Source of the DNA: a virus
Taxonomy: Duplodnaviria; Heunggongvirae; Uroviricota; Caudoviricetes
Strand: one strand, 5' to 3'
IMG/VR virus record: IMGVR_UViG_3300035042_000139
DNA length: 64,000 bases
Made by a program: the position numbers and the translations under genes. Under the pieces are notes generated by a model. It had not been told where the DNA came from, made no database searches, and saw only the letters and a program-made list of their open reading frames with translations. This document shows positions 4,865-36,915 of the stretch, piece after piece (the first letter of the stretch is position 1; each line of letters begins with the position of its first letter).

Positions 4865-4893
4865 TTGAAAAATGGATAGGGGTATGGTATACT
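4865..4893 (+). promoter_or_regulatory. Sigma70-type promoter with extended -10.
   Basis: TTGAAA (4865-4870), 17 nt spacer, TATACT (4888-4893), preceded by TGg. The shared 'TTGAAAAATGG...ATGGTATAcT' core also occurs at 36951-36979 on the - strand. Confidence 0.45.
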
Positions 4894-5102
4894 TATTATA
4901 GGTTAAAAAGAGAGGGGGATTTACCATAAAGTTATATAAATGGCAGGAGGAAGTTTTTGCTGATAAGTCATCAGTTATAGAAGTTAAAGGAGCAAGAAGA
5001 ACAGGCAAAACAGAGCTTGGAAATCATTTATCTTTAAGAGATGAGGTTGTTGTAAGATACTTTAAATACAGTAGACAAAAGGATGAATGTTTTAAATCAA
5101 CT

Positions 5103-5534
5103 ATGCACAATATACTCTCACTTAAGAATTTTATAAGCTATACTGCTAAAGATAGAAGAATAATTCGATACTGGATTTTAAATGATAATGATGAAGTTGA
5201 AAGCAGAAAAATATTCTTTTTATCTGGAACATCAGATTATGCTATCAGAAATATATATGAAAGAACAAATGGTTATACTAAAAAAATCGATACTTTAATT
5301 TTTGAAGACATGGAAGTTTCTGATAAAAAAGTAGAAAAAATAAGAGAGCATTTTATTAAAGACTTTAATTTAAAGCAGATATTCATTTTTAACTCAACTC
5401 CTTTAAAAAGGAAACAATATGTGATAGACTTATTACAGGTCAACAAAAGTGCAGCAGAAGACATGAAAAAACTAATGTCTGAAGAAAGGTATAAAGAAGA
5501 TATAAAACTTATTGGTTACGAGGAGGTAGATTAA
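5103..5534 (+). CDS. Hypothetical protein.
   Basis: 143-aa ORF. No recognisable motif. Confidence 0.4.
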   Translation: MHNILSLKNFISYTAKDRRIIRYWILNDNDEVESRKIFFLSGTSDYAIRNIYERTNGYTKKIDTLIFEDMEVSDKKVEKIREHFIKDFNLKQIFIFNSTPLKRKQYVIDLLQVNKSAAEDMKKLMSEERYKEDIKLIGYEEVD

Positions 5535-5708
5535 TTGCCTACATATAATTACAGGTGTAAAGATTGTGGCCACGAGTTTTCTGAGATTCAGAAAATAAGT
5601 GATGAGCCTTTTAAAGAATGTCCAAAATGTGAAGGTGAGCTTGAAAAGATTTTTAAAAAACCACCCGGCATTCAATTTAAAGGTCCAGGATTTTATAGTA
5701 ATACTTAA
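5535..5708 (+). CDS. FmdB-family zinc-ribbon regulatory protein (TTG start). Not in the ORF track.
   Basis: RBS AGGAGG at 5521-5526 then TTG 5535. MPTYNYRCKDCGHEF...CPKCEG: CxxC-x17-CxxC with the typical FmdB N-terminus 'Y.Y.C..CGH.FE'. Confidence 0.6.
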   Translation: MPTYNYRCKDCGHEFSEIQKISDEPFKECPKCEGELEKIFKKPPGIQFKGPGFYSNT

Positions 5709-5933: not shown

Positions 5934-7034
5934 ATGACAGGAAAAGACAAAGGTATGATGGGGCTTATAGCATTTTTGGTGATTGTGTTTATTGCAGGTG
6001 TAGGATTTTTTATGGTAACGGATAATATCGAGCCAGGGTTTGTTGGCTATGTTTATGACCGTACCATTGACCCTGATAATCCAGATGAAAATAGTGTACC
6101 TGTATTAGAGGGTACATCAGTAATCAACCAGCCAAGGTATGGACTTGTTTGGCTTAATCCTTTTACTCAAGAAATGTATATCTCACCAACAACTATTATC
6201 AGCAGAAACTGGACTAAAAATGAGCAGGAAGGCTCAAAACAGGATGACTCAATTGAGGCAGGAACAATTGAGGGCAAGAATGTAATTACTGATATTTATA
6301 TGTCAGTTCAGCCAGAAAATGTAGCTAAGATTATTAAAAATTGGGGCGTCAAAAAAGACTTCGAGACTATTGTAGATGATGAGCTTTACGGAGTTATGAA
6401 GGGCGAGGTTAAAAAGGTAACAAGAAAAACTTCAGTCTATAACTTCCAGGCCAAGGTTAGTGAAATGCAGACAGAAATCTTTGAGAACTTAAAAGAAACA
6501 ATGTCTGATAAGTATGGCATTAGATTAATCAGGTTTGAATTTGGAAACATATTAGTGCCAGAGGAAATTCAGGCTGAGATTAACCGAAAAACATCAGCTA
6601 TTAATGAGGTAGAACTTGCTGAGCTGGATGCTAAAAGACAGGCTGAGGTTAACGCTAAAGAGGTAGCAAGACAGGAAGCTGAGTCAAAGCAGGAGCTTAT
6701 TCAAAGACAGGCAGCTGCTGATGCTGATGCTTATGAGAAGGAAAGAAAAGCAGATGCAGAAGCTTACTCTATTGAAAGAAAGGCAGAGGCTATTAAGATG
6801 GCAGCTAACAATAAATATGAAGCAGCTATTTTAGAAAAGAAAGCAGAGTTAGAAAAACAGCAGGCTTATACAGATGTGTATTTTGCTAACAGAGAGCTTG
6901 ACCTGCAGACTAAAGCTGTTACAAGCATCAATGATAAGATGAAGATTATTGTTACTCCAGAAGACGGCAGTGGTATAGGTTCAATGCCCGGTATCATGGG
7001 TATCTTAAATGAAATCAGCGGGGCGATGGAATAA
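5934..7034 (+). CDS. SPFH / Band-7 (flotillin/HflK-like) membrane-scaffold protein.
   Basis: N-terminal TM helix (GLIAFLVIVFIAGVGFFMV), SPFH-like core, and a long Ala/Glu/Lys-rich coiled coil ('EVELAELDAKRQAEVNAKEVARQEAESKQELIQRQAAADADAYEKERKADAEAY...') typical of flotillin and HflK/C. Confidence 0.65.
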   Translation: MTGKDKGMMGLIAFLVIVFIAGVGFFMVTDNIEPGFVGYVYDRTIDPDNPDENSVPVLEGTSVINQPRYGLVWLNPFTQEMYISPTTIISRNWTKNEQEGSKQDDSIEAGTIEGKNVITDIYMSVQPENVAKIIKNWGVKKDFETIVDDELYGVMKGEVKKVTRKTSVYNFQAKVSEMQTEIFENLKETMSDKYGIRLIRFEFGNILVPEEIQAEINRKTSAINEVELAELDAKRQAEVNAKEVARQEAESKQELIQRQAAADADAYEKERKADAEAYSIERKAEAIKMAANNKYEAAILEKKAELEKQQAYTDVYFANRELDLQTKAVTSINDKMKIIVTPEDGSGIGSMPGIMGILNEISGAME

Positions 7035-19017: not shown

Positions 19018-20127
19018 TTATAACTTATCACCTCCATTTAAGATAATGTAGGACCTTGGCTCAATTTTAAACCCCTGAACCATTTCTGCGTTGCCTCCGT
19101 TGTTGATTATTAGTTCGTAACATCCTCTTTTAGCGTGGTAAATGTTACATGTTGATTTGATAATCTCAAGGCCCTCTTTTTTTGTTTTCTTTTTAACTCC
19201 GATAAGAGTATCTATTTGGTCTTTCAGTTCATATCTAAAGTAATCATCCCAGAAAACAACGACTGGATTGTCCTGGAAGAATATATATGCATATGCAAGC
19301 TCTTTTTTCTCTGAGATTGCATCCTTATTTGAACTTCTCTCTCTTCTTTCAATATCGTGATTAGCAAGGAAGTTAACCCTTTTATTTTTGTTTATTTCTT
19401 CAAGTTTTCTGATATCAAAATCAGGGTTCATACACATATCTCTTAATTTGTAAAATAAGGGAAAATTTAATAAATTTAAGTCTGGATTATAAGAGTGAAC
19501 CTCATTTAGTTTTGAATCTGCACCTTCCCAGTATTCGCCCATCATAAATGTGTCAAGCTTAAAATATTGTGTGAATACTTTTGTAAAATCCCAGCGCATA
19601 TCTTTTATGTTATCTAGTCGAAAACTGTCGAAACCTATCTCATCTTTGAGCCATTTTGCCCAGTTTATTAAACCATCTGCCATATATTTATCATCAGAGT
19701 AATAACAGATTGTTTCTCCAAAGGAGTTGCGGCTGTCGCAGCCACCACATTCGTGACAGAAGTGCTTGTAATTTTTTTTAAATAATTCATCTTCAAATTT
19801 TGTGTATGTTTTTTTATCAAAATAAGGATTGTACTCAAGCTCTCCTCCAAGCATATGGCCTAATACTAAATCAGCCATGACATTAACATCTTCTTTATGT
19901 AGTTTATTTATTAGTTTTTTGAGTGTTTCTTTAGTACCAAACCTAGAATCTAAGTTGTAATGTTCTTTAATATCATAGCCCATTGAGTTAGCACCATTCA
20001 TGCCCTTTGAAACAGGTGGAAGCCAGACAGTATCAAAGCCCTTGTTTGCTATCTCTTCAGCCAGATACTCTAAATGCTCCCACCAATTCTCAAGACAATT
20101 CCAATAAAACCCCTGTAAGATTACCAA
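19018..20127 (-). CDS. Glycoside hydrolase family 13 alpha-amylase catalytic domain protein.
   Basis: 'VILQGFYWN' N-terminus. GH13 regions I 'DLVLGH', II 'GFDSFRLDNIKD', III 'MMGEYWEG' and IV 'NFLANHDIERR'. Confidence 0.7.
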   Translation of the reverse strand: MVILQGFYWNCLENWWEHLEYLAEEIANKGFDTVWLPPVSKGMNGANSMGYDIKEHYNLDSRFGTKETLKKLINKLHKEDVNVMADLVLGHMLGGELEYNPYFDKKTYTKFEDELFKKNYKHFCHECGGCDSRNSFGETICYYSDDKYMADGLINWAKWLKDEIGFDSFRLDNIKDMRWDFTKVFTQYFKLDTFMMGEYWEGADSKLNEVHSYNPDLNLLNFPLFYKLRDMCMNPDFDIRKLEEINKNKRVNFLANHDIERRERSSNKDAISEKKELAYAYIFFQDNPVVVFWDDYFRYELKDQIDTLIGVKKKTKKEGLEIIKSTCNIYHAKRGCYELIINNGGNAEMVQGFKIEPRSYIILNGGDKL

Positions 20128-20141
20128 AGCCTCTCCACTCC

Positions 20142-20837
20142 TTAAAAATAGTAATTGTAATGTTTTAATGCTCCATTTTCTATAACCACTGCTAGTGCTT
20201 CAAGTTCTTTTTCTATTTCAAAACTAGTTTTAATATCATTTATTTTTTCATCTAATATTGTTTCGAATTCCTTTAAGTCCTCATCAGTTAAAGGCTCTGA
20301 TACATCTTCGTATTTTACCCTGTTTACTGTAAAATAAAGTCTTAAATTATCTTCTATCTTTTTTGTTTCCAGATTGTAATCAAGACCTATAAGGTAAGCT
20401 TTATCCAAAATAGATTCACTTAAAACTAAATCATCAGTATTCGTCATACTCTTAAGTTTGTTGAGCTGTTCATCATTTAAGCCCTTTTTGTACAAATAAA
20501 ATGTTACGCTTTTTTTGTCGTAAGAGATAATTGAATAAATCGAAGATAAAAAACTTAAGCTTGTAATATCAAAGAGCTTATTATTAATCTCCTGATTTAT
20601 AACATCACCCATCTTAAGCTCATCTAATACCTTTAAATACTTTTCGGTGTCGGCAACTTTATACTCATTAAATGTATAGTAAACTTCCTTTTTATCTATA
20701 TTAACTATGTCGGGTAGAGCTTCTTCGATTTCAAAGCCAAGCTCTTTTATTTTACTTTTTAGTTTTTCCTTGTTTTTGAACCTGTAGTCTTCATTTTTTA
20801 TTAAGCCGTCACTAATCTTAGTCATTACTTTTTCCAC
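20142..20837 (-). CDS. Hypothetical protein.
   Basis: 231-aa ORF, no recognised motif. Confidence 0.4.
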   Translation of the reverse strand: MEKVMTKISDGLIKNEDYRFKNKEKLKSKIKELGFEIEEALPDIVNIDKKEVYYTFNEYKVADTEKYLKVLDELKMGDVINQEINNKLFDITSLSFLSSIYSIISYDKKSVTFYLYKKGLNDEQLNKLKSMTNTDDLVLSESILDKAYLIGLDYNLETKKIEDNLRLYFTVNRVKYEDVSEPLTDEDLKEFETILDEKINDIKTSFEIEKELEALAVVIENGALKHYNYYF

Positions 20838-20853
20838 TTATATTTGCCTCCTT

Positions 20854-21477
20854 TTATAAGTTTAAAATAAAATTCTTAAACTCTGTTTTGTTAAGATTGT
20901 TATCTTCTTTAGTCCACATATTTTTATCTAAAGTAAGGCCTCTTTTAATAATGCCGAAACCCTCAGTGTTATTTTTAGCTAAAAAGGTGAGTCCGTATTT
21001 TTCTGCATATCTTTCACCAAAGTACAAGGAAAGTTCACACCCTTCTGAGAATTTAAGTTCAGATGAAGGTAATAATATATGAACTTTACTTTCTTTTGCA
21101 CTTTTAACTAAATCTCTTTTTTGCTTAAATTCTTTGCAAAGCTCTATGTATGGAATATCAAACTGCAAAACACAACTTAAACTTTTAATGTCATATACTT
21201 TAGGCATCCATTTAATACCAACTTTTTTTGAATATCTATCTATTTCTTTCAGTTCTTCTTTTTTGAGCTGTAATCTTCTTTCACAATCTATATTGAGCAT
21301 CTGGCCCCAGGGAGTATCAATCAATTTAAACCAATTATCTCTAGTGATTGATAGCTCTGGAACTTTAACATCAAAGGATATAATATCTGCTCCTGCCATA
21401 AAGGCTTCCTCTATTAGTTTTTTAGCAAATACTATATTTCCATTATGGTTTGTTTTTGCGTCTGCTATTATTTTCAT
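20854..21477 (-). CDS. NeuB/PseI-like (sialic/ulosonic acid synthase family) TIM-barrel protein, short form.
   Basis: 'KIIADAKTNHNGNIVFAKKLIEEAFMAGADIISFDV' parallels NeuB '[33 protein letters not shown]'. 'KVGIKWMPKVYDIKSL...FDIPYIELCKEF..KRDLVKSAKESKVHILLPSS' parallels NeuB 'KGMIFISTPFS...MDIPAYKIGSGE....LIKLVASFGKPIILSTG'. Lacks the C-terminal SAF domain. Confidence 0.4.
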   Translation of the reverse strand: MKIIADAKTNHNGNIVFAKKLIEEAFMAGADIISFDVKVPELSITRDNWFKLIDTPWGQMLNIDCERRLQLKKEELKEIDRYSKKVGIKWMPKVYDIKSLSCVLQFDIPYIELCKEFKQKRDLVKSAKESKVHILLPSSELKFSEGCELSLYFGERYAEKYGLTFLAKNNTEGFGIIKRGLTLDKNMWTKEDNNLNKTEFKNFILNL

Positions 21478-21521
21478 ATTTTTGTCACCCTTTTTAATTA
21501 AATGCTCCCCCTATTAAAAAT

Positions 21522-22115
21522 TTAGCTGTTGTATCTTATTACTGCATTGACTACATCGTTCATCATTAACTTTAAGTAGTCATCGTTATTTAGTTTCTTT
21601 TCTTCTTCTATATTTGTAATAAAACCCATCTCTATCAAGACTGCTGGCATATGAGTGTGTTTTAATACGTATAAGTTCTTTCTTTCTTTAAGGCCTCTAT
21701 CACGAGGATTAAGGTCCCTTATTACTTCTTCTTGTATTAATCCTGCAAGCTTTTTACCTCCTGTACTGGTAGGATAATGAAGTGTTTCAAAGCCACTAGC
21801 ACTCTCTGCAGCTGCTGCATTAGCATGGATTGAAATAAATAAATCTGCCTTTGCATTGTTTGCTATATTGCATCTTTCACTAAGCCTTACATATTCGTCT
21901 TTATCCCTAATCATTACTATTTCAAACCCTGTTTTTAGTTCGAACAAACTTTTAAGCATTTTTGCAGCTTTTAAGTTCTTTTCGCTCTCTTCTGTGTAGA
22001 TTTCATCTTTATAAATATCATCATCATGTTTTTTATCTTCAGGGTCAACAGCCCCCCCGTCTTTTCCTCCATGTCCTGCCGATATTGCAATTATTAAGTT
22101 TTCTTTATATGGCAT
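21522..22115 (-). CDS. N-acetylmuramoyl-L-alanine amidase (Amidase_3), endolysin.
   Basis: 'IAISAGHGGKDGGA', 'EKNLKAAKML', 'VMIRDKDEYV...RCNIANNAKADLFISIHANA', 'SGFET'. Confidence 0.75.
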   Translation of the reverse strand: MPYKENLIIAISAGHGGKDGGAVDPEDKKHDDDIYKDEIYTEESEKNLKAAKMLKSLFELKTGFEIVMIRDKDEYVRLSERCNIANNAKADLFISIHANAAAAESASGFETLHYPTSTGGKKLAGLIQEEVIRDLNPRDRGLKERKNLYVLKHTHMPAVLIEMGFITNIEEEKKLNNDDYLKLMMNDVVNAVIRYNS

Positions 22116-22174
22116 CTATAGTCACCTCCCTTCTTTTTTTAGTTTTATTTATCAAACATTACTAAACATAAAAC

Positions 22175-22408
22175 TTAAAGTTTATTTTTTTTATTCTCAT
22201 AAGTAAATTTAATATCGAATGGTTCTCCTTTTAGCTTACTTATTTCTGCTGCAAGTACATGAACTGCCTCTATTAATTCTTCTTTTGTAATGTAGTCTAG
22301 GTCGTTTGCTAGCTCAGCGTTTTCATCTGTTAATTTTTCATAACCTTTTGAAATAACCAGCCTATCTCCATTATCTAAAACATTATATTTAGCCATCATA
22401 CTCACCAT
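22175..22408 (-). CDS. Small acidic hypothetical protein immediately downstream of (and overlapping) radical-SAM paralog 1.
   Basis: 77 aa with a 20-nt overlap with the upstream gene. Confidence 0.35.
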   Translation of the reverse strand: MVSMMAKYNVLDNGDRLVISKGYEKLTDENAELANDLDYITKEELIEAVHVLAAEISKLKGEPFDIKFTYENKKNKL

Positions 22409-23292
22409 TTTCTATTTTTTTTAAATGATTATCAAAATGCTCTATTATAGAATCATCTTTTTTATATCTTATTTTGTTGCACCGCTTACACATATCGGGG
22501 TATTCCGAGACATCTTTTCTTAATTTATCTCTAAACCTATTTGCTTTTTTGGAATAAAATATTTCATAGACTGTATTTTTAAAAACATTCCCAAAAGACA
22601 TATCTTCAAATTCCTCTAGTTCTGTTCGTATATGGCAACAGGGATTAACCTCCCCCAAATAGTTAATTGATATATTTATAAATGGTTCATAGCATTTAAC
22701 ACTTCTGTTATCTCTATTATTTTTGTATTTTACCTTTCTCTTTTTATTTGATTCTTTATCCTCATAAAATATATCTTCAGTTATTATACCTGCCCTGTCC
22801 TCTATTTCTTTATTTTCTGGCCAATTATAAATAACTATAACTTTTGTTGCATCTTTATGGGTTGCTAATATTTTTGACTTACACTCAATAACATCAAGAA
22901 TACCACAGCCAGAATCCATTAATTTATTTTTCCAGTAATTTATACCCTTCATATCATAATCCATAATATGAAGCCTGTTAAGATTTAAACCATCTAAATT
23001 ATTATAATTTATAAAATCTCCATTTGTTGATATGTCAATCCTTACATTATCTAAAATATCTCTTGCTTGATTAACTCTTTTTTTGAGAATCTCAATATTT
23101 ATCATTGGCTCTGAATAACCATTTAATGTTAATATTTTATTAGGCTGATTAAAGCCTAATTCTTTTAATTCATTTAATATTTCTAAATATTTATTTTCTG
23201 AAAGTTCTTTATAAAAACTTCTATCTACATATTTGTTTGTGCACCACTCACAAGAGCGATTGCACTGACTAAAAATTTCAATTTCAACCCTC
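22389..23292 (-). CDS. Radical SAM / SPASM-like domain protein (paralog 1). N-terminal region lacks a canonical start codon, so this is either a non-ATG start or a pseudogene.
   Basis: ORF track starts at Met 23105, but the same frame stays open upstream to a TAG at about 23296 and encodes 'VEIEIFSQCNRSCEWCTNKY' (CX3CX2C). C-terminus has the 'CYEP...NPCCHIR...FGN....EI...C.RCNK' SPASM-like cluster. Start coordinate uncertain. Confidence 0.5.
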
Positions 23293-23323
23293 TTTATATT
23301 TGATAAAATTTTAAACTACCCCC

Positions 23324-24196
23324 TTAAACAATATTCCCGTTTACTTTTTTCGCGTGTGTTCTTCCCTCTCTATCTTTGTTGCAGTACTTGCATATCTCAG
23401 GCATAGTTTCTACAGTAGAAAACTTGTTGTACAAATCAAAAACAAACTTAGAATTATATATTTCTGGAAGAGTTTTTTCTTTTATATTTCCAAGAATAAA
23501 TCTTTTATGCTTATCATGGTCGCTTCTCATATGACAGCAAGGCATTACATTCCCGTTGTAGTCTACATATATTGACAAAGAAGGTTCACTGCATACATAA
23601 TCTCTTTTTTCTTTTTTTCCTCTCCATAAAAGTGGCTTATCTTCATTATATATAAATTCATCATCTAAAATTCCACCTCTATCTTCAAGTAGAGCATGTT
23701 TTGGCCAGTCAACTTTATATATTAATTTGTCAATATTTTTGCTTTTAGCATGTATCGTCTTTGTGTCTTCTTTAATTTCAATTATAGAGAACCCTAAATC
23801 TTTAACTCTTTTTTTGCACTTATCCATTCCTTCCATATCATAATCCATAATATTTAACCTATCTATAATTAGATTTTCTAATGATTTCTCATTAACAAAA
23901 TCTCCATTTGTTTTTACAACAACTCTTGCGTTTGGAAATGTTTTATTAATTTCCCGAGTCCGTTTTTTTAAAAGTTCAGGATTTAAAAATGGCTCATGAT
24001 ATCTTCCTATAACTATTTGCACAAATACATTCTGGCCAAAACCATCTTCTCCAAGTTCTTTTAATATTTTTGTGAAATGTTCATCGCTCATTTCTTCATA
24101 AAAAGTTCTATCTATATCCTTATTAGGACACCACGAACATTTTCTGTTGCATTGACTATGGAGCTCTAATTCTAAATATTTCATTCCAGAAATCAT
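23324..24196 (-). CDS. Radical SAM / SPASM-like domain protein (paralog 2).
   Basis: 'ELELHSQCNRKCSWCPN' (CX3CX2C), 'KTNGDF', 'LNIMDYDMEG', C-terminal 'CSEP...MPCCHMR...LGNI...C.YCNK'. Confidence 0.65.
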   Translation of the reverse strand: MISGMKYLELELHSQCNRKCSWCPNKDIDRTFYEEMSDEHFTKILKELGEDGFGQNVFVQIVIGRYHEPFLNPELLKKRTREINKTFPNARVVVKTNGDFVNEKSLENLIIDRLNIMDYDMEGMDKCKKRVKDLGFSIIEIKEDTKTIHAKSKNIDKLIYKVDWPKHALLEDRGGILDDEFIYNEDKPLLWRGKKEKRDYVCSEPSLSIYVDYNGNVMPCCHMRSDHDKHKRFILGNIKEKTLPEIYNSKFVFDLYNKFSTVETMPEICKYCNKDREGRTHAKKVNGNIV

Positions 24197-24198
24197 TA

Positions 24199-25044
24199 TT
24201 AACTCACCTCTTCTACAAAATTATTCCATTCTTTTTCGTCGTTAATTATTTTATGAGGCTTTATCATTTCGCCAGTCCTATTTTTGTAATCCCACAAAAT
24301 ATCTCTCATCCAATGTGGTATTGCCTGATTAAAAAATAATAAATCAGCATAATATTTTGCCTCTATTTCGAGCAGTATTTTTCTGTCGTCATAAAATTTA
24401 ACATTGTCAATATTAAAATATTTTTCTTCCAATATCTTTTTTATTTCATCTGTATTGTTTCTGTCACCATAAAGTACCACAAAAGGAACTGCTTGCTTTA
24501 TTTTTCTTTCGACTTTTGCTAAATCTCTCCTTGACTTTAAAGGAAAATAATCTCGTTTTACTTCTAGGCATAACAGTTTCTTATCTTCAGGCCAGATTCC
24601 TTCATCAACTAAGAGTTGTATAGAATAAAGTCTGTGATTACCTTCGTATATAAAAAGTTCATCATGAGGCATTCTGTTTGCTATAACAAGAGGCCAATAT
24701 GTTCCGTTTTCTAGTATATCTAAACCTAATTTTTTTTTATTATTTATAGTTTCCATAAGATATTTGTCCTCAACAAATTCATCCCAAAATTTTTGTGTCT
24801 GGTCATGCCTAACACGAATTTTTCTTGGGTGAAGCCATCTAAACTCAAAATATTCTAAATCAAGTATATTTTTGATATTATTATAGATATGCGTATTATA
24901 AAGGTAATGTATATCCTCTTTGCTGTACTTTATCTTGTTTTTTTGCAATAAGTAATTACCATGCTCATGCCCTACTATATTAGCAAAAACGAAATCGTTT
25001 ATCTTTTCATCAAAGAACAAAGGCCTAATAATATTTGGCTCCAT
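24199..25044 (-). CDS. Hypothetical protein (possible ParB/Srx-like fold).
   Basis: 'LFIYEGNHRLYSIQLL' loosely resembles the ParB 'DG.HRL.A' motif. Weak. Confidence 0.35.
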   Translation of the reverse strand: MEPNIIRPLFFDEKINDFVFANIVGHEHGNYLLQKNKIKYSKEDIHYLYNTHIYNNIKNILDLEYFEFRWLHPRKIRVRHDQTQKFWDEFVEDKYLMETINNKKKLGLDILENGTYWPLVIANRMPHDELFIYEGNHRLYSIQLLVDEGIWPEDKKLLCLEVKRDYFPLKSRRDLAKVERKIKQAVPFVVLYGDRNNTDEIKKILEEKYFNIDNVKFYDDRKILLEIEAKYYADLLFFNQAIPHWMRDILWDYKNRTGEMIKPHKIINDEKEWNNFVEEVS

Positions 25045-25061: not shown

Positions 25062-25595
25062 TCAGTAAGCGTTGATTGTTATTTCATTATCAGAAAATCT
25101 ATCATCTACAACTCCAAAAACATAAGAGCCAGCTTCATTTATTTCAATACTTTTCTCTCCATAATTATTTGATACGTTTACAGGAAATGGAATATCATTT
25201 ACTTTTAGCTCTATTTTTTCAAAGTTGTCTACAGCCTCTAAAGTATTTTTGATAGTAACACTTATAGTTAAATTATTATTTAGACTTAAATCGAGCTCAT
25301 CCATTGAAGATTCAATTTCAATTACCGGCTTTTCTTTCACTTCTGTAAATCCATCAATTTTAACAATTCTTAATTTTTCTTGAGCATCAATTGTTATTAA
25401 CTCATCATAATAAACAACACTATCTAAAAATTCCTTCTGGTCTAATGGTACTCTAGCGGACATACATAGATTCTCAAAATCAGGAAGTGGAGCGCTACCA
25501 TAAGGCTTAGCCTGACATCTCAAAATTGCAAGATTCCTTTTGTCATATAAAATTCTACTTGGCATTAATCTGAACCTCCCTCTATTGCTAACCAC
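25062..25595 (-). CDS. Hypothetical protein (possible fiber accessory or assembly protein).
   Basis: 177-aa ORF overlapping the upstream fiber gene by 31 nt. Confidence 0.35.
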   Translation of the reverse strand: MVSNRGRFRLMPSRILYDKRNLAILRCQAKPYGSAPLPDFENLCMSARVPLDQKEFLDSVVYYDELITIDAQEKLRIVKIDGFTEVKEKPVIEIESSMDELDLSLNNNLTISVTIKNTLEAVDNFEKIELKVNDIPFPVNVSNNYGEKSIEINEAGSYVFGVVDDRFSDNEITINAY

Positions 25596-27388
25596 ATTAC
25601 CTCACCAGTTGCTATATTTAAGTCACTGGCTCTATACTCGCACTCAACAACGTTAATAGAAAGACTACCTGTTGAACATGATATATTGAATCTAAAATGA
25701 TATTCTCCCGCTGCCAAGTCCATTGCAATATCCCTGACACCAGTTGAAGGGTTTGTGTATCCTTTATGGTAAATCCAAGATGAACTTGTAGTTCTTTTAT
25801 AATAAAACCTTAGCACATTATTTGAAGATGATGATGTAACATTAAATCTTACTCTCAAATATGTGGAACCATTAACAGTACTTCCTGGCCAAACCCAGTC
25901 AGCACTTCCTGGAGTATAAGTATAACCATAACATTCGGAACCTGAGCGAATTGATGATGCACTAATATTTGTGTTTATTGTGTTTTTAGTAGTACCACCC
26001 AAAACTACTGACCTACCATAAACATAAAAACCACTGGCACTTGGAGCTGAGTGGTAACAGGAATATGTTTGGTTTCTGTTTGAGTAAGAACCAGTATAAC
26101 TTCTTAACTGTTTTATAGCTGTTGTAACTTTTGGGGCCTTATCCCAGCCCAAACTTATATAATCACCGTTTTGTGCTATGCCAGACGCTACTCTTTTAGA
26201 ATAATCATGTGGTATGCTTGAACCATTTTCGTAAAATAAAAGGGAGTCATCTGAAAGTATGGAGTAATCTCCATCAGAACCTGTGGTTCTTATACCTCTA
26301 CCATCAATTGTTACACTATTTACATCAACATCCCATTCTGTAGATGCATACCCGGCAGGTATTACTCCGTTATCAAACTCAACAGGATTCCATCCATTAC
26401 TTTGTATATTGTCTGTTATCTCACATCTTACACCACTTGTAGCACCAGTAAAGAAAACCTCAACATACATAGGGTCGTAAGTTCCATTAGTTAGCAACCT
26501 AACTCCTGAGATTGAAAGAATTGAATATCTAGAAAAAGATACCATTTGAAAATCAGCATTGCCTCTTTGGTTGTAACTACAACCTAATTTGAATTCTAAT
26601 GAGTTATGTTTTCCTCCATCTGTATCTCTTATTTTGAAGGTTGCGTGAGCTCTGTCTCCTGGATTTGAAGCTATCCTGACCCAACCAGGGCCCTCAATAT
26701 CTGCTTCAAATCTGTGATTAGTGCTAACCCATTTAGATTCATCATCAGCATATTTTTTGGCGTTAGTTTCTGCTGTAGTAGATTTACTTGTAGAACCACT
26801 TACTGTTTCTAAATCTTCAGCACTTGTGTCAACACCAGCAATATTTGAGCCTACATTTATTGAGCCACTAAATGATGCGTTACCATTACTATCTATTTTG
26901 AATGTGTCTTTAGAGCCATCATTTGCTGTTATACCAGTGTTATCTATTGTGATTGAGCCTGAAGAGTTTACTAGTTTAAAAGCTCCATTTACTACAGTTA
27001 TACCTGCTGAATCTATAGTAACATCTCCACCAGAAGAAGTTATTGGGTTGCCGTCAGCATCAGTAGTAGCTATTGTAGCTTTGCCATCATCAGAAACGTT
27101 GATACCTGTTGCTGACAGCCATTCTGAATCAAAGCCATCAGTTAGAGACTGAACCCATGCTATGTAGTTTGTGTCTTTATTTAATGTTATATTTCTAAAA
27201 ATATGCTCGTACTGAGTTGTACCTCTATTTAATATATCTGTTTTTTCTGAACTTGTTTTTTGTATAATTATTGCCTCTGTGTTAGGGTCAGAGCCTTGAG
27301 GGGCTATTGCTACATTAAACCCCTCAAGTAACATTTCGTCTCCTTCCCAGGTCCAAGACACATATATATCTTTAAGTATCTTCGCCAT
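25565..27388 (-). CDS. Tail fiber / receptor-binding protein, paralog family (N-terminal anchor domain).
   Basis: N-terminal 'IYVSWTWEGDEMLLEGFNVAIAPQG...YIAWVQSLTDG' is shared with 32083.., 36998.. and 39651... C-terminal part is beta-rich and Gly/Ser/Thr-rich. Confidence 0.6.
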   Translation of the reverse strand: MAKILKDIYVSWTWEGDEMLLEGFNVAIAPQGSDPNTEAIIIQKTSSEKTDILNRGTTQYEHIFRNITLNKDTNYIAWVQSLTDGFDSEWLSATGINVSDDGKATIATTDADGNPITSSGGDVTIDSAGITVVNGAFKLVNSSGSITIDNTGITANDGSKDTFKIDSNGNASFSGSINVGSNIAGVDTSAEDLETVSGSTSKSTTAETNAKKYADDESKWVSTNHRFEADIEGPGWVRIASNPGDRAHATFKIRDTDGGKHNSLEFKLGCSYNQRGNADFQMVSFSRYSILSISGVRLLTNGTYDPMYVEVFFTGATSGVRCEITDNIQSNGWNPVEFDNGVIPAGYASTEWDVDVNSVTIDGRGIRTTGSDGDYSILSDDSLLFYENGSSIPHDYSKRVASGIAQNGDYISLGWDKAPKVTTAIKQLRSYTGSYSNRNQTYSCYHSAPSASGFYVYGRSVVLGGTTKNTINTNISASSIRSGSECYGYTYTPGSADWVWPGSTVNGSTYLRVRFNVTSSSSNNVLRFYYKRTTSSSWIYHKGYTNPSTGVRDIAMDLAAGEYHFRFNISCSTGSLSINVVECEYRASDLNIATGEVMWLAIEGGSD

Positions 27389-35203: not shown

Positions 35204-35424
35204 CTGTTTAATACAGCTTACAGAGTAATCTGTAACCCACTGTGTTTTAACATGGTGGATAGGGTGAAAAAGATTCACGAGTCAACCATCCTGTAACTTT
35301 CTTAATCCTGAATCACCCACTTGTGGGTTTAAGAAGGTGCGAAAACTTGTTAATAGACTATACTGAGTATGGTTTATTACTTAACAAGCTCCCTTCTAAT
35401 CTTGTTTTTGATTAGGTGGGAGAA
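35204..35424 (+). ncRNA. Putative omega-RNA (right-end RNA) scaffold of the TnpB element.
   Basis: Non-coding stretch of about 200 nt from the tnpB stop through the right-end hairpin (35396-35415), as in characterised TnpB/omega-RNA loci. The guide would derive from flanking DNA from about 35421 onward. Confidence 0.4.
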
Positions 35425-36092
35425 GTTGACTTATTTTCCCACTTCCATTTAGCAAATTCATAATCCTCTTTGGTGTCTATATCTATTACTTCTTTGTTTG
35501 GTACTTCTATTAAAGAATGGTTGTCTTTTAGCATCTGCCCGTCTTTGAAAAAATTATCTTTATTAAAAATATGAAAGCAGTGAGCAGCTTCGTAATAATC
35601 AGGTATTTCTTTTGTTGTCAGCCTCTCATAATTTATATCTGTTAAGCATTGATTTTGATTATTAAATAACCAGTTTTTATAAACTTTTACGCTTGTTGCA
35701 TAATTGCCCTCACAGTAATCTTCATCTAAACTATCGAATGTCTCTAATGACTTTAAGATTGTTTCTTTTTTTAAAAAAGCAAGGCACGGATTTAAAAACA
35801 TTAAATGTGTATCTTCTACTTCTTTTAAGTCTTTAAATATATACTCAAGCGGGCCATCAACTAAAGCCGTAATTTTATCTCTTAAAATAACTGTTAGATT
35901 ATCATATTTTTGAGCAATCTCTACAAGCTCTTTGTCGTAGCATAGTGCATATTTATTATACTTATCTGGCAGACTGTTTAGCTTTTTACAGGCTATATCC
36001 CAAAGGTTTGTATCTCCTAAAGGAAGTACTAATTTGTTTGGAAGCCTTTCGCTTTGTAATCTACCAGGAATAAAAACTCCGATTTTTTTCAT
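35412..36092 (-). CDS. Acylneuraminate/3-deoxy-manno-octulosonate cytidylyltransferase family (NeuA/KdsB-like, CTP_transf_3).
   Basis: 'KIGVFIPGRLQSERLPNKLVLPLGD' matches 'IIPAR.GS.R.P.K.L..' N-terminal motif of CMP-ulosonic acid synthetases. 226 aa. Its stop codon lies inside the IS right-end hairpin. Confidence 0.55.
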   Translation of the reverse strand: MKKIGVFIPGRLQSERLPNKLVLPLGDTNLWDIACKKLNSLPDKYNKYALCYDKELVEIAQKYDNLTVILRDKITALVDGPLEYIFKDLKEVEDTHLMFLNPCLAFLKKETILKSLETFDSLDEDYCEGNYATSVKVYKNWLFNNQNQCLTDINYERLTTKEIPDYYEAAHCFHIFNKDNFFKDGQMLKDNHSLIEVPNKEVIDIDTKEDYEFAKWKWENKSTSPT

Positions 36093-36111
36093 TTATTAAC
36101 TCCTTTTAATC

Positions 36112-36915
36112 TCAATATTTTATACCGGGATTCTCCCTGGTATACCTTCCCTCTTCTTTGATGCAGTATTTACACTGCTCGGGAAAGTCTAAGTTTTGAA
36201 GTCTTAACTGCAGGTCTTTTAGCTTTTTAGAATCCAGTATTGACCTGATACTTTCGTTTTTTATGTTACCAAGTACAAATTCCTGGTGGATATTATTATC
36301 GCTTCTGAAGTTGCAGCAGGGCATCACATTGCAGTTGTAGTCTATCCCAAGAAAATGAAAAGGCTCATAACATTTCTTTTTTCTTATTTTTTTATCTGCT
36401 TTTTCTAAAGAGCCCGCCCTGTCTCCAAAGCTTTCCAGTCTGGCCCAGTCGCTAACATACACTACTTCCATGTCGTGACCAAAACCGTATATCTTATTAT
36501 CTATTATTTCTGTTATCTCAAAATTTAAATCTTCCATTCTTTGAATACAGTAGCCTAAACCTTTGTTGTCGTAATCCATTATTGAAAGCTCATCTATCTC
36601 AACTCTATCTAAAATTGAGTTTGTAAGATAATCTCCATTGGTGTTTGTTACAAGTCTTGCTTCAGGTAATAACAACCTTGCTTTTTTAGTATACTGAGCA
36701 AAAATTTCTTTCAAAGCAAAAGGTTCATTATACCTTGAGTAACTTATTGTTCCTTTATAATCGATGGACTTGAGTTCGTTTAAAATATTTGTATAATTAG
36801 TCTTAGGCAGTATCTTTTTTATCTTTCGATTTATATATTTATTAGGACACCAACTGCATGTTCTGTTGCAATAGCTGTGTATTTCTATTTCTACCATTCT
36901 TAGATTAGTGTACAT
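36112..36915 (-). CDS. Radical SAM / SPASM-like domain protein (paralog 3).
   Basis: 'VEIEIHSYCNRTCSWCPN', 'TNTNGDY', 'LSIMDYDNKG', C-terminal 'CYEP...MPCCNFR...LGNI...C.YC'. Confidence 0.65.
   Translation of the reverse strand: MYTNLRMVEIEIHSYCNRTCSWCPNKYINRKIKKILPKTNYTNILNELKSIDYKGTISYSRYNEPFALKEIFAQYTKKARLLLPEARLVTNTNGDYLTNSILDRVEIDELSIMDYDNKGLGYCIQRMEDLNFEITEIIDNKIYGFGHDMEVVYVSDWARLESFGDRAGSLEKADKKIRKKKCYEPFHFLGIDYNCNVMPCCNFRSDNNIHQEFVLGNIKNESIRSILDSKKLKDLQLRLQNLDFPEQCKYCIKEEGRYTRENPGIKY

Follow-up and report, generated by a model that had tools for sequence, protein, structure and literature searches.

The radical SAM genes of the window

The stretch of viral DNA analysed here, referred to as the window, is 64,000 nucleotides long and carries three radical SAM/SPASM paralogs on its minus strand. 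Gene callers begin paralog 1 at a methionine codon at position 23105. The reading frame on the minus strand is open for a further 70 codons 5' of this methionine (210 nt, 23315-23106), as far as an in-frame TAG at 23318-23316, after which it reads FKILSNIKRVEIEIFSQCNRSCEWCTNKY... and runs into Met 23105. A scan of these codons from 23315 to 23106 found no in-frame ATG, GTG or TTG. The near-cognate codons that are in frame are ATT 23309, ATA 23297, ATT 23282 and ATT 23276. The features of the locus, with paralog 1 re-annotated from the first of these, are as follows.

22389-23309, minus strand: paralog 1 radical SAM/SPASM coding sequence as re-annotated, 306 codons and a stop, with a putative ATT start (open frame, Pfam, homologs, AlphaFold)
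23307-23309, minus strand: proposed ATT initiation codon (start alignment with homologs, Shine-Dalgarno strength, identity in five assemblies)
23318-23325, minus strand: Shine-Dalgarno sequence AAGGGGGT, 9 nt upstream of the ATT as counted from GGGGG to ATT (duplex free energy)
23316-23318, minus strand: in-frame TAG that ends the paralog 1 frame 5' of the ATT
23241-23264, minus strand: CX3CX2C radical SAM motif CNRSCEWC, residues 16-23, with C16, C20 and C23 invariant in alignment A1
23103-23105, minus strand: ATG used by the gene callers (238-aa product P0001), an internal Met at residue 69, without a Shine-Dalgarno sequence and giving a product without the cluster motif
23324-24196, minus strand: paralog 2 radical SAM/SPASM, 37% identical to paralog 1
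36112-36915, minus strand: paralog 3 radical SAM/SPASM, 32% identical to paralog 1, adjoining a PseF-like cytidylyltransferase gene (35412-36092)

The three cysteines of the cluster motif fall at codons 16, 20 and 23 counting from the ATT. In the extended frame of 308 residues (23315-22392), which begins two codons 5' of ATT 23309, the Pfam Radical_SAM domain covers residues 12-117 and SPASM covers 208-280. Since Radical_SAM begins upstream of the called methionine, the 238-aa product lacks the SAM-cluster motif. The paralog 2 gene ends with TAA at 23326-23324, 14 nt upstream of ATT 23309; the GGGGG at 23323-23319 abuts this stop, and AAGGGGGT shares two bases with the end of the TAA and one with the beginning of the in-frame TAG.

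The first-pass annotation had described a frame that stays open above Met 23105, encodes the CX3CX2C motif and has no ATG, GTG or TTG, as well as a GGGGG run adjoining the stop of the upstream paralog and an alignment of the cluster motif with the other two paralogs. The frame scan and alignment A1 agree with it on all of these points. Its coordinates need correction, as it placed the TAG at about 23296, about 20 nt away from the actual position, and gave the upstream open stretch as 190 nt rather than 210 nt.

The leader of paralog 1 is the longest among the real genes of the window. A coding run of 68 codons without ATG, GTG or TTG has a probability of about 0.24 given the codon usage of the genome's own coding sequences, so is by itself no rarity. 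The non-random feature is that three things occur together: a leader homologous to the N-terminus of the family, a strong Shine-Dalgarno sequence at its head and none at the called methionine.

The start of the protein as indicated by homologs

The nearest orthologs of paralog 1 are on other uncultured phage contigs, L017 (49% identity) and L006 (43%), and both are closer to it than are the other paralogs of its own genome. In tblastn searches the first methionine of paralogs 2 and 3 aligns with ATT 23309, and in alignment A1 the start methionine of five relatives shares a column with Ile1 of paralog 1. Codon for codon, the ATT corresponds to TTG in L017 and to ATG in L006 and in paralogs 2 and 3, and the distance from the start to the first cysteine is exactly 15 codons in all five genes (paralogs 1-3, L017 and L006). 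The start regions compare as follows.

Window: AAGGGGGT-AGTTTAAA-ATT TTA TCA AAT ATA AAG AGG...
L017: GGAGGT-ATAAAT-TTG TTA TCT CAC TTA AAA AGA...
L006: GGGGG-TCGTCT-ATG TTC AGT AAG GTA AAA AGA...

Against L017 the leader is as well conserved as are the other parts of the protein. When 1.84 billion representatives were searched with a profile, 619 family members were returned at E<=1e-30, and the top full-length members start at profile positions 1-5. Comparison of the start codon with orthologous phages, which had been proposed in the first-pass annotation, thus gives a TTG and an ATG at the position of ATT 23309.

The ATT is shared by all strains that are at least 99% identical, and the databases searched hold no relative of paralog 1 intermediate between these strains and the 49% ortholog. 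As the orthologs have TTG and ATG, the ATT is the derived state in this lineage. By this comparison it could be a recent mutation that weakened, or removed, the start.

The closest ortholog has also been cut by its gene caller. In L017 the JGI product (P0074) of the gene at 586-1467 is called from TTG 691, and the in-frame TTG 586 has GGAGGT 6 nt upstream, directly after the stop of the preceding gene. N-terminal truncation of the paralog 1 family in databases therefore extends beyond the ATT case. A marine (TARA) member of the family, P0114 on L016 (positions 1-150), has two in-frame stops just 5' of its CAWCP motif. These could mark a genuine pseudogene or an error at the end of the contig and, because they lie near the contig edge, this member is uninformative for the question of the start.

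Ribosome-binding sites

Shine-Dalgarno strength was computed for each candidate start as the free energy of the duplex with the 16S 3' tail, the sequence of which was assumed. ATT 23309 has a value of -11.7 kcal/mol, compared with a median of -10.75 for 44 genes of the window, and is the best in-frame candidate. The called ATG at 23105 has -3.0, which is background level and amounts to no Shine-Dalgarno sequence; the other near-cognate codons have -1.1 (ATA 23297), -6.3 (ATT 23282) and -7.2 kcal/mol (ATT 23276). A value as low as -9 occurs at only 3% of random positions. Shine-Dalgarno sequences of the GGGGG type also precede ATG genes of the window at 5934, 10896, 16169 and 36915, the last being paralog 3. 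In the predicted mRNA fold AAGGGGGT is unpaired and the surrounding mRNA is unstructured, with no significant structure that would hide or present the ATT site. No internal promoter or terminator above shuffle expectation was found between paralogs 2 and 1.

The first-pass annotation had offered rare initiation at an ATT or ATA codon as one option. Its ATT version gains support at 23309, from the duplex energy and from the aligned starts of the homologs; ATA 23297 was rejected as a start, having no Shine-Dalgarno sequence.

It is probable, on these sequence features, that ATT 23309 is the functional start of paralog 1. The gene would then encode an intact and expressed BtrN-like radical SAM/SPASM enzyme of 306 residues, starting at the AUU at 23309-23307. 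Ribosomes would be positioned at the AUU by the extended Shine-Dalgarno sequence AAGGGGGU, 9 nt upstream. With a gap of just 14 nt after the paralog 2 stop, translational coupling is likely and probably also delivers ribosomes to the site. The initiator tRNA would read AUU with a mismatch at the third position, so that the protein would begin with fMet, and output might be roughly one tenth to one quarter of the level expected from AUG. Both initiation at the AUU and this level of expression are inferred. As gene callers accept only ATG, GTG and TTG, the 238-aa gene from Met 23105 is best seen as an artefact.

A second near-cognate start in the window

A gene on the plus strand has the same arrangement.

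4926-5534, plus strand: P-loop protein with the Walker A motif GARRTGKT, putative ATA start at 4926-4928, called from ATG 5103

The frame at 4902-5534 encodes GARRTGKT upstream of its first canonical start, at 5103. A Shine-Dalgarno sequence, GAGGGGGA, lies at 4912-4919 (GGGGG at 4914-4918), 7 nt upstream of ATA 4926, and gives a duplex energy of -15.5 against -1.8 at the called ATG. A promoter, TTGAAA-17-TG-TATACT, is present at 4865-4893, 5' of the ATA. The ATA, the GGGGG and the peptide I-x-LY-x-WQ-x-EV are retained in relatives at 93% (L011/L012), 83% (L015), 66% (L014) and 53% identity (L013). In each of these an in-frame stop (TAG or TAA) lies 6-8 codons upstream, and the Walker A motif is never preceded by a canonical start; the downstream ATG has been lost in the 93% strain. 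The ENA caller put a 'Q' into P0005 for the TAG that precedes the ATA gene; this is an artefact, as the DNA reads TAG. A tblastn search with the ATA protein against GenBank phages gave no match.

From this conservation of sequence, initiation at ATA 4926 is evidently functional in the lineage. The retention of the ATA with its Shine-Dalgarno sequence down to 53% identity (L010-L015) indicates that near-cognate initiation operates in this group of phages, which in turn raises the prior expectation for ATT 23309. The conserved ATA gene is also the sole ground from which tolerance of AUU starts by the host may be inferred. A third candidate, the ORF at 346-2001 with ATA 781, was rejected in favour of TTG 394, which has a duplex energy of -16.

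Immediately 3' of the P-loop gene is a 57-aa Zn_ribbon_8 (FmdB-like) gene, at 5535-5708 on the plus strand. In distant relatives the Zn_ribbon_8 domain is fused to the P-loop protein (P0008 and P0009; L013 2001-2738 and L014 710-1318), and for this reason the two proteins probably work together.

Alternative explanations for paralog 1

Sequencing error and recoding had both been raised in the first-pass annotation, and there are signs that might point that way, since an in-frame TAG lies shortly 5' of both near-cognate genes and a caller has rendered one of them as Q. The truncated paralog 1 product is present on 7 contigs, of which five places were inspected, in JGI, Logan and ENA samples. 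A 251-nt junction is identical in these five independent assemblies from different samples, three of which diverge from the window elsewhere by 0.6-0.9% (35 positions outside the junction in L003, 9 in L004 and 9 in L005), and this excludes a sequencing error. Read-through of the TAG was rejected, as only 17 codons are open above it, none of them a start codon, and the stop that precedes the ATA gene in L013 and L014 is TAA. Among the TTG and GTG codons that are out of frame, none has a usable Shine-Dalgarno sequence, all of these being weak, and the ORFs run to 20 codons at most. A frameshift from TTG 23287 or 23281 was thus also rejected, with ORFs of 18-20 codons and loss of the invariant E11. 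The long structural genes of the window are open under table 11, and the window has no tRNA genes, so that a suppressor or unusual initiator tRNA was dismissed as well. Error or recoding, by read-through or by a shift from TTG 23281, is on these grounds scarcely credible. That the annotated 238-aa product is real, as a SPASM-only protein without a SAM cluster behind 68 upstream codons that are an untranslated relic, has in its favour that Met 23105 is the first canonical start and is the choice of the callers of three pipelines. Gene callers, however, also cut L017 despite its in-frame TTG, so their choice is not evidence for Met 23105. There is no Shine-Dalgarno sequence at this codon, the methionine falls inside a helix/strand unit of the partial TIM barrel, the leader is as well conserved as the remainder of the protein, and its 68 codons hold no stop in a genome of 34% GC. 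This makes a genuine 238-aa protein highly improbable. Hardly more plausible, and very unlikely, is a start at one of the downstream in-frame ATT codons, 23282 or 23276, within the peptide VEIEI behind an AAGAGGG motif; the protein would then lose 9-11 residues and keep the cluster motif. AAGAGG does lie 6 nt before ATT 23282, but the duplex energies of the two sites (-6.3 and -7.2) are far weaker than that at 23309 and the AAGAGGG is accounted for by conserved K-R-V coding that is also found in L006 and L017. A start at 23276 would drop the invariant E11, both sites would drop part of the first beta strand, and no homolog starts at either.

The first-pass annotation had also offered the option that paralog 1 is a decaying duplicate and linked this to recent paralog turnover. 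Neither part of this is supported by the sequence. The frame is intact across 306 codons and keeps 25 of the 25 residues that are invariant in the family (alignment A1), including C16, C20, C23, E67-P68, N96-G97-D98 and the SPASM cysteines; the gene has orthologs of its own; the predicted structure is a confident BtrN-like fold; and across strains it shows one synonymous and no non-synonymous change, a single substitution that leaves dN/dS without power. At 37% identity between paralogs 1 and 2 (32% between 1 and 3) the duplication is old. There is a narrower form of the idea, in which an ancestral ATG or TTG has only recently become ATT, translation has effectively gone, the frame has not yet decayed and the other paralogs cover the function. 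The canonical starts of the orthologs (TTG in L017, ATG in L006) make the ATT derived, two further paralogs are indeed present in the same genome, and the divergence among the strains is too low to gauge selection. Set against this are the strong Shine-Dalgarno sequence kept at the right spacing, the intact frame with its invariant residues, and the fixation of the ATT in every sampled strain, the diverged ones included. The paralogs share only 32-37% identity, hence redundancy is unlikely, and the same phage lineage has a conserved and evidently functional ATA start. Moreover, AUU with a good Shine-Dalgarno sequence yields 10-25% of the AUG output in tested bacteria, which is reduced but is not zero. 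A recent start-loss pseudogene is therefore considered unlikely, and initiation at ATT 23309 is the preferred reading.

Comparison with known near-cognate starts

Initiation at AUU and AUA codons is an established mechanism. In E. coli, infC and pcnB start with AUU, which in this species is 6-8 times weaker than AUG and gains about twofold when it directly follows an upstream stop (PMC3592434). In S. aureus, infC, cvfC1, ccpN and citZ combine AUU or AUA with an extended Shine-Dalgarno sequence and give about 10-30% of the AUG output (PMC13009471); the start codon is AUU in cvfC1 and AUA in infC, ccpN and citZ. Paralog 1 resembles these sites in having no canonical start and an AUU behind a strong, extended Shine-Dalgarno sequence at normal spacing and, as in infC, this AUU is just 3' of the stop of the preceding cistron. 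By analogy, attenuated and IF3-sensitive translation would be expected. In its sequence, the paralog 1 locus has the features of the near-cognate initiation class. It differs from the known cases in being a phage enzyme gene, rather than one for a regulator or translation factor, and in being known here from sequence alone. Unlike ccpN and cvfC1, the AUU of paralog 1 is conserved only at strain level, the orthologs having TTG and ATG; it is the companion ATA 4926 that resembles ccpN and cvfC1 in being deeply conserved.

The mechanism has precedents in infC, pcnB, cvfC1 and ccpN, and the paralog 1 case is mainly an annotation correction. For phages specifically, the literature searched holds essentially nothing on ATT or ATA starts, which are barely documented for phage genes. 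The window would thus contribute two naturally occurring phage genes with near-cognate initiation, of which one start is deeply conserved. The signature is found in two genes among roughly 60 in 64 kb, which can be set beside the two E. coli examples (infC and pcnB) and the four S. aureus sites (PMC3592434, PMC13009471). The deep conservation of the ATA start suggests deliberate low-level or IF3-sensitive expression of that gene. It is conceivable, though doubtful at present, that AUU and AUA codons behind very strong GGGGG-type Shine-Dalgarno sequences are a recurrent and selected device that sets or times expression in this lineage of uncultured large phages. One possible role of such starts is the sensing of host IF3 activity during infection.

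The consequences for databases are more immediate. All of the pipelines run on this phage (JGI, ENA and Logan) have removed the catalytic N-terminus of paralog 1, with the result that it is filed as a SPASM-only protein, and the same pipelines have removed the Walker A motif of the ATA gene. Family and domain statistics based on such calls will under-count phage radical SAM enzymes.

Enzyme family and gene neighbourhood

The SPASM domain (PF13186) of paralog 1 scores 48.4 bits, above its gathering cutoff of 21.5, and the invariant cysteines of this region are C206, C224, C225, C274 and C277. Radical_SAM (PF04055) scores 25.6 bits (E 1.6e-5) in paralog 1, below the gathering cutoff of 29.5, and 35.8 bits in paralog 2, which passes. 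The AlphaFold model of paralog 1 has a pLDDT of 81 and a pTM of 0.82. Its best structural match is BtrN (E 3e-12, TM 0.76 normalised to BtrN), followed, seven orders of magnitude behind, by MoaA (6e-5), and BtrN is also the only solved structure that is detectable by sequence (E 2e-13). Membership of the radical SAM enzymes at the level of the predicted fold is supported by this match.

BtrN (PDB 4M7S/4M7T) is a radical SAM 2-deoxy-scyllo-inosamine dehydrogenase with an auxiliary-cluster (twitch) domain. Paralog 1 is similar in being small, in the position of its N-terminal CX3CX2C, about 15 residues into the protein, in its Cys-rich C-terminal auxiliary domain, and in the sugar-metabolism context around the gene. 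The two differ in that they share only about 20% identity and that the C-terminal domain of paralog 1 scores as a full SPASM, whereas BtrN has the shorter twitch. Matches of paralog 1 to NCBIfam radical SAM subfamilies all fall well short of the cutoffs, which leaves the protein without assignment to a specific family. Nine proteins of the neighbourhood gave no matches in PHROGs, megablast of the 3-kb region against GenBank phages gave none, and tblastn of paralog 1 against the same phages gave one 25% match only. No match of paralog 1 peptides in IMG/VR was confirmed. A search for the host through the endolysin in GTDB genomes was uninformative, the sole match being at 30% to an Omnitrophota MAG.

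Two further genes of the window may bear on the function of the paralogs.

20854-21477, minus strand: NeuB-like synthase, 207 aa, neighbour in the window
35412-36092, minus strand: PseF-like cytidylyltransferase, adjoining paralog 3

The radical SAM/SPASM, NeuB-like and PseF/CTP_transf_3 genes form a conserved module set among tail and structural genes, at 19018-25044 and 35412-36915 on the minus strand of the window and at 2989-8847 in L006. The L006 contig has two radical SAM genes, CTP_transf_3, a cupin and NeuB in a row, the cupin being an addition there. The module also holds a 281-aa protein with a ParB-like end and no Pfam match. From its gene content, the module suggests a phage-encoded pathway for a nonulosonic-acid-type sugar with radical SAM steps. 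A sugar-modifying role for paralog 1 may be inferred from this context and the likeness to BtrN. The position of the BtrN-like trio beside NeuB-like and PseF-like genes, amid tail genes, hints at a modified-sugar pathway carried by the phage itself. The NeuB-like protein covers only the N-terminal half of the NeuB/PseI models (positions about 1-130 of 241-329); it is a divergent short form or else a synthase that has been truncated or split.

Strain divergence

The divergence of strain L003 from the window is uneven. Paralog 2 (23324-24196) has 18 substitutions, with 6 codons changed at the protein level, compared with 1 in paralog 1 (22389-23309), and 11 are clustered in a tail-like gene at 25565-27388. 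The pattern points to recombination mosaicism, or else to diversifying selection acting on paralog 2 and on the tail gene.
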